This document shows, in pieces, positions 58,938-61,238 of a stretch of 61,238 bases of DNA. The DNA is from a virus. Taxonomy: Duplodnaviria > Heunggongvirae > Uroviricota > Caudoviricetes > Ackermannviridae. The number at the start of each line of letters is the position of its first letter. Positions within the stretch are counted from its first letter, which is position 1. The stretch covers positions 96,683 to 157,920 of IMG/VR virus record IMGVR_UViG_2974514734_000001, one strand, 5' to 3'. The notes under the pieces are model-generated. The model had not been told where the DNA came from and ran no database searches. It was given only the letters and a program-made list of their open reading frames with translations. The position numbers and the translations under genes were made by a program.

Positions 58938-59171
58938 TTAAGAAACGATAACTGTCGCATCAGAATTAATTGCCTTAACCCAACCCACCGTCGGCGGGGT
59001 TAAAACGACCATATTTCCTTGATATATGATATGCGCGTTGTTACCCGTTGGAGCGCTGGGGCTATCACACAGATACACAGAACCGTGAGTCACTTGAAGA
59101 GTTTTCAAAGATGTGCCGTCTGAGACTTGCGTCCATGTACTTGCGTTTGGTGTGATCTTAGCAGTTGCCAT
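58938..59171 (-). CDS. Small late beta-rich protein
   Basis: GGAGG RBS; ATAAATAG promoter at 59197-59204. Confidence 0.75.
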   Translation of the reverse strand: MATAKITPNASTWTQVSDGTSLKTLQVTHGSVYLCDSPSAPTGNNAHIIYQGNMVVLTPPTVGWVKAINSDATVIVS

Positions 59172-59212
59172 AATAGACCTCCTTTACAAGTCAGATCTAT
59201 TTATTATAGACA

Positions 59213-59242
59213 AAAAGAAGCCCGATCTTCCTGATCGGGCTA
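59213..59242 (-). terminator. Terminator of the tRNA-cluster transcript
   Basis: Minus strand: agcccgatc-aggaa-gatcgggct-tcttttt. Confidence 0.8.
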
Positions 59243-59301
59243 TGGTTAAACCATCGTGGGGATGGAAAGACTACTCACAGCAATTTCTGGTATTAGGCGT
59301 T

Positions 59302-59456
59302 TGGGAGAGTGCGTCGGGAATCGAACCCGAAATCGTCAGGACGTTGAAAGCTATTTGCATTTCACTTGCATATCCTGCGACTTTCTTAACTTCCTTAACC
59401 CCAGATTGTTATGAAGTCGGCATGCACACCTTCTTCATCTTCAGGAAGTCACACTC
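59302..59456 (-). ncRNA. 155-nt tRNA-like RNA with canonical acceptor stem and T-arm but greatly expanded internal arms
   Basis: GAGTGTG/CGCACTC stem, TCGGG-TTCGATT-CCCGA T-arm, 3' end UCCCA. Confidence 0.7.
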
Positions 59457-59484
59457 ATAATTTGATTTGCGTTCATCGCAAATT

Positions 59485-59568
59485 TGGTGTGAGTGGATGG
59501 ATTCGAACCACCGCGCTGTTACGGGGAGATTTACAGTCTCCTGCATTCGACCGCTCTGCCACACTCAC
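59485..59568 (-). tRNA. tRNA-Tyr (GTA)
   Basis: Full cloverleaf; ggaga-ctGTAaa-tctcc; long variable arm; encoded CCA. Confidence 0.95.
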
Positions 59569-59571
59569 ATT

Positions 59572-59646
59572 TGGTCTGCCGCTGCGTGCTGGGCCACGCT
59601 CGAGGACATCGGCCATCCTTCCTCAGCTAATCCACGCAGCGGCAGA
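59572..59646 (-). ncRNA. 75-nt CCA-terminated long hairpin RNA (non-cloverleaf)
   Basis: 14-bp perfect stem TCTGCCGCTGCGTG/CACGCAGCGGCAGA followed directly by CCA. Confidence 0.6.
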
Positions 59647-59714
59647 TTTGTATCAGAGTGTCCGGTGTAGCAACCCGTGAGGTGCGCACTACTGTAGCCT
59701 CTACACTCTGAATT

Positions 59715-59820
59715 TGGTGGGCGCTACTATCGTCGTCTTCGGATTCCGTTCGGCTATTGGACAGAGGCTTGGAGCTTGTCGGTCGCGTACTTTATGCCTA
59801 TTCACTTTCGTTCACACCCA
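59715..59820 (-). ncRNA. About 106-nt CCA-terminated RNA with acceptor-like stem
   Basis: GGGTGT/GCGCCC pairing plus ACCA end; no canonical T-loop. Confidence 0.45.
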
Positions 59821-59825
59821 TTGTC

Positions 59826-59901
59826 TGGCGACGATGGCAGGACTTGAACCTGCGACATACGGTTTAACAGACCGCCGTTCTACCGACTGAACTACATCGT
59901 C
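59826..59901 (-). tRNA. tRNA-Asn (GTT)
   Basis: Cloverleaf; gcggt-ctGTTaa-accgt; TTCAAGT T-loop; CCA. Confidence 0.95.
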
Positions 59902-59910
59902 TTGCAAATC

Positions 59911-59935
59911 ACTATACCATATAAAGTTTATTGAA
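59911..59935 (-). promoter_or_regulatory. TTCAAT-N13-TATAGT promoter upstream of tRNA-Asn
   Basis: Minus strand: TTCAAT aaactttatatgg TATAGT. Confidence 0.55.
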
Positions 59936-59963
59936 CAAACATTTATTTTACAACAAACTGTAT

Positions 59964-60066
59964 TGGCGGGGTCTGAGGCTTTTCACCTCACCTGCTGGGT
60001 TTGGCCGCCCAGCCGTTCTCTATGAGGATTCACTGTCCGGACAGCTATCCATTAAACTATCGCCCC
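59964..60066 (-). ncRNA. 103-nt degenerate tRNA-like RNA ending GCCA
   Basis: 5' GGGGCGA-TA-GTTTAATGG start; gctggg/cccagc arm; tgagg-TGAAAAG-cctca T-like arm; CCCC-G-CCA end. Confidence 0.5.
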
Positions 60067-60072
60067 TTAATA

Positions 60073-60149
60073 TGGTGATCCTGATTGGGTTTGAACCAAT
60101 GACCAATGAATTATGAGTTCACTGCTCTAACCGACTGAGCTACAGGACC
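60073..60149 (-). tRNA. tRNA-CAT (Ile2-like or Met)
   Basis: Cloverleaf; gtgaa-ctCATaa-ttcat; body resembles enterobacterial tRNA-Ile2; CCA. Confidence 0.93.
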
Positions 60150-60157
60150 AAATTATT

Positions 60158-61220
60158 GTGTACCAACCAAGGACTGTCAACCCTTTATCCCGTTTGTGCA
60201 TGATCAGTTCATGCATGCCTGTTTGTGCGCCTCACGGCAACGCGCTTCTGTGGGTCTTTGGCTTGCACCGTAGCCTCACCACAGGCGTTTATTTTTCCAG
60301 GGCTTTCCACTTGCAAGTCTTGACCATACAGGGATACGGGCTTGCAAGATCGGGTTGGACACAACTTTGATGGCTCTGGTACTAAAGATCCCGCGTCACC
60401 CATAGACATGGTTTATAAAATCCAGAGCCATCAAAGTTGCAACCAAATGTTATAACTCGCAGCTTCCATACAGAAGCAACTTGTCCTCTAACGCTCGGAC
60501 CAAACGAGGCTGGCTGGTTGATTCAGAGCCGCTGGTTGCTCCAGCAAGCATGGGTTGATAGCCCGACAACATAGAATCACCCAAAGATGAAGAACACTCA
60601 GTGGTACAAGCCAGGGATACCAATTTTCAGGTCCTTTGCGAGTTCTTTAATGCTCTTCATTTTGCGAACTCGAGAATACTGCGCCTGTCTCGGGTTTCCC
60701 CTTAGTTCGGCCTCTCATTGTTCGTCCGGTCAGGGAGCTACCCTTGATGACCAGCTTATATTGAGATCTTCGCCAGCGCCCACCAGTGTCTAGAATGTGT
60801 AGGCGTCGAGGTCTGCAAGGCATTGCCCTATTTCATACAACGCTCTCTCAAGTACGCAAATCGAAGTTCTCTGGGCTTAACAGGTTCGACCCAACATGTT
60901 GAATATCGCCTAACTTACTCATGGGACGGCCACTTCTGTGTACAGACCTTGAGGGTTAAAAGATATACCCAAAGAACTTCGATTTGCGTTGTGGGGGCAA
61001 ACCCCCACACGGCTACTTCTTTGACAGGGATTGCTAGCCCTGGGGATTCCACTATTTAAGGCTTTATCCCATAACGCCCGAGGCGCGTTTTAACTTATTG
61101 AAGCTTGCATAACTGCAAACTGATGCGCTGTGAGACACATCTGGGAGGGCACTCCGTGGATTCATTTTACAGCATCCCGTATAGCGGATACCGACCTCGA
61201 TCAAGTGCCCTCTCAGATGT
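60158..61220 (-). ncRNA. ORF-poor, highly structured region: candidate large ncRNA or array of structured RNAs
   Basis: Successive long stems at 60158-60362, 60362-60439 (18 bp perfect), 60582-60664, 60854-60989 (17 bp perfect), 60990-61009 and 61137-61220 (17 bp, one mismatch). Confidence 0.55.
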
Positions 61221-61238
61221 CGGCGGGAGCTTATTAAT

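Follow-up and report, generated by a model that had tools for sequence, protein, structure and literature searches.

Introduction

Bacteriophage T4 encodes two small RNAs, RNAC (species 1 RNA) and RNAD, which Northern blots have established as real stable RNAs and whose function is still unexplained (PMC9697503, PMC3014915). For RNAC the question has stood since the 1970s. In a 2025 evolution study, a convergent single-nucleotide polymorphism in rnaD was found during adaptation to a semi-permissive host, a slight indication that RNAs of this kind are relevant to host adaptation. Here we describe an RNA gene of 155 nucleotides (nt) that resembles RNAC in its layout and lies in the genome of an Ackermannviridae phage, IMG/VR virus record IMGVR_UViG_2974514734_000001. 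The DNA analysed, called the window throughout, is the right-hand 61 kb (61,238 nt; positions 96,683 to 157,920) of this 157,920-bp record. Many phages that infect Salmonella and E. coli and belong to Kuttervirus (Vi1-like, Ackermannviridae) have DNA 95-99% identical to it. A preliminary description, made from the window alone, had pointed to a giant tRNA-like RNA at this place.

Two further kinds of RNA carry tRNA-like parts without an ordinary decoding arm. The tRNA-like domain of transfer-messenger RNA (tmRNA, SsrA), including the phage forms that are reduced to it, has an acceptor stem and a T arm, lacks an anticodon arm and has extra domains instead. The bacterial Y RNA YrlA is likewise non-decoding and contains a tRNA-like T arm/D arm module; the Ro-binding stem of YrlA is built from its 5′ and 3′ ends, and the tRNA-like module lies inside the molecule.

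Isolation of Vi1-like phages as agents against Salmonella, E. coli O157 and Klebsiella is widespread. In almost every GenBank record of these phages the 155-nt RNA is unannotated or lies under a spurious open reading frame (ORF), and a literature search found no paper that ties Ackermannviridae to a tRNA-like or small RNA.

Results

A structured RNA gene without an anticodon

The interval 59456..59302 is a genuine structured RNA gene, which has not been annotated and which is conserved, non-coding, tRNA-shaped and devoid of an anticodon. RNA positions are counted from its 5′ end, RNA position n corresponding to window coordinate 59457-n on the minus strand. The minimum-free-energy (MFE) fold has an energy of -49.1 kcal/mol (z = -2.9; 2 of 200 shuffled sequences folded equally well) and is a four-way junction composed of an acceptor stem, a branched arm at the position of the D arm, a long arm at the position of the anticodon arm, and a T arm. 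All of these helices were recovered by RNAalifold from a plain MAFFT alignment of nine diverse relatives, with 15 compensatory pairs. A covariance model built from the nine-copy MAFFT alignment, R1, retrieved 19 copies at 127-177 bits, and the length is held at 150-156 nt across all of them. The gene is present as a single copy in its own genome.

Pairing and covariation were counted over 18 distinct sequences. Standard pairs make up 96.2% of the pair cells, against about 45% when the partners are slid, and changes on both sides have occurred at 16 pairs (87 cells); these values were reached by none of 500 shuffles. The compensatory pairs are spread over the acceptor stem (one, with three further one-sided changes), the inner hairpin of the D-position arm (four), the GGU/GCC stem (one, G-C to A-U in six sequences), the long anticodon-position stem (six) and the T stem (two). 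The coordinates of the parts of the RNA and of its neighbours are collected in Table 1.

Most of the structural strings named in the preliminary description hold up, and all of them can be read on the minus strand between 59456 and 59302. The 7-bp acceptor stem GAGUGUG/CGCACUC consists of six Watson-Crick pairs and one U-G pair and covaries; pair 4:69 changes from U-A to C-G in 8 of the 18 sequences, and G1, G3, G5 and G7 are invariant. The T arm and the UCCCA tail are likewise there, with a canonical T loop and a covarying T stem. Both the branched D-position arm, in which an outer stem (A)CUUCCU/AGGAAG(U) surrounds AUGAAG/CUUCAU, and the long anticodon-position stem UCGCAGGA/UCCUG(A)CGA appear in the MFE and the RNAalifold folds. 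The unpaired segment of the D-position arm contains an invariant GG (RNA 55-56, window 59402-59401), the counterpart of G18 G19 of tRNA. It had been proposed that the molecule retains the acceptor and T-arm face of a tRNA and that its other half carries domains of its own, and the covarying acceptor and T stems, the canonical T loop and the invariant GG bear this out.

The apex of the anticodon-position arm was a different matter. Here a cap UGCA-AGUGAAA-UGCA with a 7-nt, anticodon-like loop and a central UGA had been proposed. Across its four pairs, only 59.7% of the cells are paired, without covariation and to the same extent as in the slid control, and the outermost pair, which is required for all four, occurs in 5 of the 18 sequences, all of them from Kuttervirus. 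The proposed loop also has G at position 33. The conserved apex is instead GAAA(U)GC-AAAUA-GCUUUC, with a loop of 5 nt, and the UGCA cap is a coincidence confined to Kuttervirus. No clade has an anticodon loop, and therefore the RNA cannot decode.

Conservation is unevenly distributed along the molecule. Invariant columns make up 10 of 16 in the loop-1 hairpin, 12 of 18 in the apical hairpin, 6 of 7 in the T loop and 4 of 5 in the tail, and the inner-hairpin loop UGUGCAUG does not vary at all. The covarying stems, by contrast, have hardly any invariant positions or none: in helix 5, the long anticodon-position stem, none of the 17 columns is invariant and compensatory changes are found at 6 of the 7 counted pairs. 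Fixed loops on drifting stems fit a sequence-specific recognition of the loops. The two invariant modules also contain complementary segments, UGCAU (RNA 31-35) and AUGCA (RNA 97-101), which could pair loop to loop in all 18 sequences; both sides are invariant.

Table 1. Features of the RNA gene and its operon, in window coordinates
Feature	Coordinates	Strand	Basis or remark
Whole tRNA-like RNA, 155 nt	59302..59456	-	Covariance model R1, 172 bits, E = 8e-48
Acceptor stem, 5′ strand GAGUGUG (RNA 1-7)	59450..59456	-	Pairs with RNA 144-150 in 100% of cells
D-position arm (RNA 8-68): 6-bp stem CUUCCU/AGGAAG, inner hairpin, unpaired AAUC..GG	59389..59449	-	Outer stem never varies
Inner hairpin of D-position arm (RNA 18-47), cap GGU-GUGCAU-GCC	59410..59439	-	Helix 3, four compensatory pairs
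A-rich junction linker UAAGAAAG (RNA 69-76)	59381..59388	-	Unpaired in consensus structure
Anticodon-position arm (RNA 77-124): 8-bp stem with bulged A121, internal loop, apical hairpin	59333..59380	-	
Apical hairpin GAAA(U)GC-AAAUA-GCUUUC (RNA 94-111), 5-nt loop	59346..59363	-	12/18 columns invariant across genera
T arm UCGGG-UUCGAUU-CCCGA (RNA 127-143)	59314..59330	-	100% of cells paired, two compensatory pairs, 6/7 loop positions invariant
Acceptor stem, 3′ strand (RNA 144-150), and tail U-CCC-A (RNA 151-155)	59302..59313	-	CUCCC invariant; 4/5 tail columns fixed
tRNA-Tyr (GUA), unit immediately upstream of the 155-nt RNA	59485..59568	-	ARAGORN and Rfam
tRNA-Asn	59901-59826	-	ARAGORN and Rfam
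tRNA-Met	60149-60073	-	ARAGORN and Rfam
Putative sigma-70-type promoter just upstream of tRNA-Met, TTGACA-17-AATAAT	60152..60180	-	11/12 consensus matches only
Intrinsic terminator	59209..59241	-	9-bp stem with six G-C pairs, then UCUUUUU; 61 nt past the 155-nt RNA

Position at the end of the tRNA operon

The RNA gene follows tRNA-Tyr after a spacer of 28 nt, the end of which is AAAUUAU. The same leader precedes the RNA in the Klebsiella phages. Among relatives, sequence similarity begins at this AAAUUAU before G1 and stops right after UCCCA; these sharp limits at both sides mark the ends of a discrete unit. The promoter-like sequence ahead of tRNA-Met, a consensus match and the sole such site in 59000-61238, is likely to be the start of the operon. 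A site that matches the terminator is annotated as a terminator in the Klebsiella phages Magnus and May. With the putative promoter before tRNA-Met and the terminator after the 155-nt RNA, this RNA is thus the last unit of what appears to be a single tRNA operon.

The arrangement is general. In every genome examined the RNA closes the tRNA cluster, and the unit upstream of it is tRNA-Tyr, -Gln, -Lys, -Ile or an aberrant tRNA. Downstream of it in the relatives come a terminator and then late tail-needle genes.

Distribution in phages

By blastn, the same 155 nt were found in 224 Ackermannviridae phage records at 75-99% identity. Kuttervirus copies are 94-99% identical, those of Agtrevirus and of Shigella phages about 79%, and those of Klebsiella Taipeivirus about 76%; Salmonella phage CRW-SP2 carries a divergent copy.

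Wider scans did not extend this range. A scan of IMG/VR with an invariant 20-mer returned known Ackermannviridae only, and the same 20-mer gave four matches in prokaryote genome contigs, which belong to unrelated taxa and were read as chance. A looser two-block pattern gave 41 viral matches and at least 119 metagenome matches. When R1 was applied to the two-block loci, the viral confirmations were Ackermannviridae only, and none of the 80 metagenome loci tested was confirmed. R1 also gave 22-26 bits, as full-length matches, to stretches of about 130-146 nt that consist of a tRNA-Tyr and a preceding structured unit, at L015:3203-3335 (-), L020:2137-2282 (+) and L042:9097-9242 (-); these matches, the first of which scores 26 bits, are probably a generic tRNA signal.

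Comparison with tRNA, tmRNA and Y RNA

ARAGORN and Rfam, the latter used at the gathering threshold and at E values up to 10, called the three neighbouring tRNAs and did not call the 155-nt RNA. The Rfam scan was among the checks that the preliminary description had suggested, and in it the RNA matches no family. A permissive Rfam scan of the region gave only a 10-bit tmRNA match on the T arm, together with noise.

The likeness to canonical tRNA (RF00005) lies in the 7-bp acceptor stem that abuts a 5-bp T stem, the T loop UUCGAUU, the GG at the D position and the location in a tRNA operon. The differences lie in the remainder of the molecule. It is 155 nt long; its D stem has 6 bp and a loop of about 47 nt that holds a hairpin; a linker of 9 nt stands in place of the single nucleotide 26; the variable region has 2 nt; and there is no anticodon arm with a 5-bp stem, a 7-nt loop and U33.

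tmRNA, T4 species RNAs and YrlA had all been named as comparators, and of these only the T4 RNAs stand, as an architectural analogue. Pair 3:70, to begin with tmRNA, is G-C in 17 of the 18 sequences and G-U in CRW-SP2 only, and the discriminator is U, not A. The 10-bit match is confined to the T arm and compares with an Rfam gathering score of 47. Nor is a tag frame conserved; the 9-codon AUG..UAA frame seen in the window falls within a hairpin that covaries and is broken in Agtrevirus. In the case of YrlA, the ends of the 155-nt RNA form an acceptor stem, no Rfam match was obtained and the phage genome encodes no TROVE domain. The E. coli and Klebsiella hosts are also not known to have Rsr.

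Architectural likeness to T4 rnaC

T4 rnaC (139 nt) was taken from NC_000866 (L017:1409-1547 (-)). Like the 155-nt RNA, it is a unit of a tRNA operon and has an identical AAAUUAU 5′ leader. The two RNAs have a four-way layout in common, in which a terminal stem is followed by a long hairpin at the D position, an A-rich linker, a second hairpin and a T arm. The terminal stem of rnaC has 7 bp, abuts a canonical T arm (GGUUCGAAUCC) and is followed by U, as in the 155-nt RNA. Its D-position hairpin is about 70 nt long, and its A-rich linker of about 10 nt occupies the same place as the 8-nt linker of the 155-nt RNA. The second hairpin has 26 nt, with an invariant loop and no anticodon loop; the corresponding arm of the 155-nt RNA has 48 nt. 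Two features common to both RNAs, the length of the A-rich linker and the large size of the hairpin at the D position, are not inherited from tRNA. The rnaC fold is backed by 18 compensatory pairs among relatives in Karamvirus, Moonvirus and Gelderlandvirus; Tequatrovirus has relatives of it as well. In the taxonomy of one record, T4-like phages and Ackermannviridae are both filed in the order Pantevenvirales.

There are differences as well. Outside the generic tRNA portion, no similarity in sequence or profile was detected. The terminal stem of rnaC contains two U-U mismatches, its tail is UACA whereas that of the 155-nt RNA is UCCCA, and the arm sequences and conserved loops of the two RNAs differ. 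In some T4-like phages rnaC lies in mid-cluster, whereas the 155-nt RNA is always found at the cluster end.

Two minor observations concern rnaC itself. Some annotation pipelines call its relatives tRNA-Lys or tRNA-Trp. In the D-position hairpin of T4 RNAC, CCGUAAG stands opposite AUAUGG and is, by eye, similar to the 11-nt GAAA tetraloop receptor (CCUAAG/UAUGG).

Discussion

A proposed stable RNA acting in trans

With moderate confidence, we regard the element as a stable, non-decoding, tRNA-shaped small RNA of the T4 RNAC type that acts in trans. Beyond the observed structure, conservation, operon-end position and missing anticodon, we infer its transcription, processing, elbow formation and trans-acting role as follows. 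Transcription of the tRNA operon would run from the predicted promoter at 60180 to the terminator at 59219 and include the RNA as the final unit. Host RNase P would then cut the RNA out at G1. Excision there is expected because the RNA has the features that RNase P recognises, namely an acceptor/T-arm helix (a 7-bp acceptor on a 5-bp T stem), a canonical T loop, U-1 and a C-rich tail. Host 3′ processing would shorten its end to about UCCC(A). A tRNA-like elbow probably arises by contact of the T loop with the invariant GG in the enlarged D-position arm. Lacking an anticodon loop, the product could not decode; its tRNA body would serve as a scaffold for processing and stability, from which the loop UGUGCAUG and the hairpin GAAAUGC-AAAUA-GCUUUC, both invariant, would be offered to a trans-acting partner. 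The partner would most likely be a host protein that handles or targets tRNA and, because of this presumed identity, the RNA may act as a decoy or adaptor.

Several results count against this picture. R1 searches of whole genomes gave no copy in Dickeya phage RC-2014 (Limestonevirus) or Serratia phage IME250, and the RNA is therefore accessory or dispensable in some lineages. (In IME250, just 174 nt lie between tRNA-Tyr and the next gene.) The 3′ tail of the gene is UCCCA, and UCCCU in phage May, and so is not an exact N-CCA. Homology with T4 rnaC is not demonstrable either: in a search run with filters off, R1 gave T4 rnaC 23.2 bits, equal to the best tRNA-containing stretch, and R2, a covariance model of the T4 rnaC family, gave the Ackermannviridae copies 7.4-10.1 bits, against 14 for tRNAs. 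The T4 RNA is an architectural and positional counterpart. Domain scans of the phage genome found no PolyA_pol/CCA-adding enzyme, Ro/TROVE or SmpB as a partner, and a decoy or adaptor role is something that we only infer. The only RNA-labelled public run, available as contigs, spans 59483-60019 in a variant with a 452-bp insert; the element lies outside it, and the run has no bearing on expression.

The scan for the T4 RNA ligase 1 (Rnl1) domain was void, as its control matched in no genome. Among antisense words of 9-14 nt sought in the phage's own genome, the longest were 12-mers, of which there were four against an estimated expectation of about three, none on the transcribed strand of the island. 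RNAduplex comparisons of five conserved segments with E. coli tmRNA, 16S, 23S and 5S RNA, tRNA-Glu and the upstream phage island gave z above -2.3 in every case.

Alternative explanations

The gene could instead be a purely cis-acting end-piece of the operon, made up of an RNase P/RNase E site and a nuclease-resistant 3′ structure, the excised RNA having no function of its own. Such an end-piece would set and safeguard the 3′ terminus of the polycistronic tRNA precursor, or else shield this precursor from the downstream late tail genes. Its constant place ahead of the terminator, as the final unit and beside the late gene cluster, its loss from IME250 and RC-2014 without replacement and the lack of an outstanding antisense target in the phage genome, host tmRNA or rRNAs all agree with an action in cis. 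We nevertheless consider it unlikely, as an acceptor/T minihelix would suffice for a processing signal and yet some 110 nt of additional structure persist, in which loops stay invariant across genera while the stems drift; moreover, the analogous rnaC is mid-cluster in some T4-like phages. Less probable still is an aminoacylated tRNA mimic, which a host synthetase would charge via the acceptor stem and discriminator (invariant U73, G1:C72) and which would donate its amino acid outside the ribosome or supply the missing tRNA-like half for a tmRNA-like message RNA in the same island. The conserved acceptor stem, T arm and U73 and the invariant G1, G3, G5 and G7 would suit a charged molecule, a weak tmRNA-like module lies about 1.9 kb upstream on the same strand, and CRW-SP2 has G3:U70. 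In 17 of the 18 sequences, however, the pair is G3:C70, and alanyl-tRNA synthetase (AlaRS), which charges tmRNA, should therefore reject the RNA. The UCCCA tail (UCCCU in one relative) in place of N-CCA, the absence of any segment complementary to the upstream island beyond chance (best z -2.2) and the lack of a phage SmpB point the same way.

It is very improbable that the gene is a decaying tRNA gene or pseudogene with insertions, or, as the preliminary description had allowed, an intron-bearing tRNA that is spliced to a normal tRNA of 76-90 nt. It does sit in a tRNA cluster and has the ends of a tRNA, and the neighbouring units of its relatives include aberrant tRNAs annotated as tRNA-OTHER. 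On the other hand, compensatory changes in helices 3, 4 and 5, together with loops that never vary, show that selection acts on the inserted parts; all 19 copies measure 150-156 nt, no clade retains a 7-nt anticodon loop, and no intron family matches. The covarying extra parts also amount to only about 80 nt, and the known tRNA introns of bacteria and phages are group I introns of at least 200 nt. A small protein-coding ORF on either strand, as drawn in some GenBank records, can hardly be right. There is a 115-aa ORF antisense to the gene (59113..59460) and a 51-aa ORF in the sense direction (59409..59564), and some records place a 'hypothetical protein' over the region; every frame nevertheless gains stops in some clade, the annotated ORFs overlap tRNA genes, and the substitutions preserve pairs and are not codon-patterned. 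These 'hypothetical proteins' are spurious.

Relation to T4 RNAC and wider meaning

The trans-acting reading can be carried further, to a proposal that we hold to be doubtful. The 155-nt RNA and T4 RNAC may be divergent members of one old class of non-decoding, tRNA-shaped RNAs that spans T4-like and Vi1-like phages, the loops of which would bind a host factor that handles or targets tRNA, so that the RNA acts as a decoy or adaptor relevant to host range. A defence nuclease, a modification enzyme and a charging enzyme would be candidates for this factor. If true, the proposal would give a function to the 50-year-old species 1 RNA of T4.

The 155-nt RNA represents a structured RNA family with good support, which Rfam does not contain, and it shares the architecture of T4 RNAC. 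As a second, independent family, in which covariation can be used and the invariant loops stand out clearly, it offers a concrete handle on the RNAC question. It also adds to the picture of phage "tRNA islands" that encode many non-decoding tRNA-shaped RNAs.

Further features of the tRNA region

In many relatives, tRNA-Tyr and the 155-nt RNA are separated by some 450 bp, a block that is absent from the window phage. It contains a tRNA-Ser(GCU) and an 86-nt 'tRNA-OTHER' (L001:1589-1766; L002:1364-1541). The latter is a tRNA-Ile body in which the anticodon arm has been replaced, and phage GOT has a normal tRNA-Ile at that place. In DNA contigs of related phages, the joint at window 59462/59483 carries 452 extra letters.

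The tmRNA-like module mentioned above lies at L196:27-225 (-), that is G000:C1:27-225, just past the right end of the window on the circularly permuted map. Its Rfam matches are both weak (tmRNA_permuted, 20.7 bits, E = 0.3; beta_tmRNA, 14.4 bits, E = 0.2). It contains the frame GCU AAU GAU AAC ACG UUC CUG GCA GUA GCU UAA (ANDNTFLAVA-stop) and has no tRNA-like half.

Past the terminator, window 59150-59215 (-) contains AUAAAUA within CUAUAAUAAAUAG, which resembles the T4-type late promoter, TATAAATA. A 77-aa gene (59171-58938) has its Shine-Dalgarno sequence and ATG about 30 nt beyond the motif, and the tail-needle-knob gene (58928-58410) comes next. With this late-promoter-like sequence and these two genes downstream, the RNA operon thus abuts the late structural cluster.

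At the other side, directly upstream of tRNA-Tyr, window 59572-59646 (-) holds a perfect 14-bp stem, UCUGCCGCUGCGUG / CACGCAGCGGCAGA, with CCA immediately after it. This unit is a further non-cloverleaf member of the tRNA operon.

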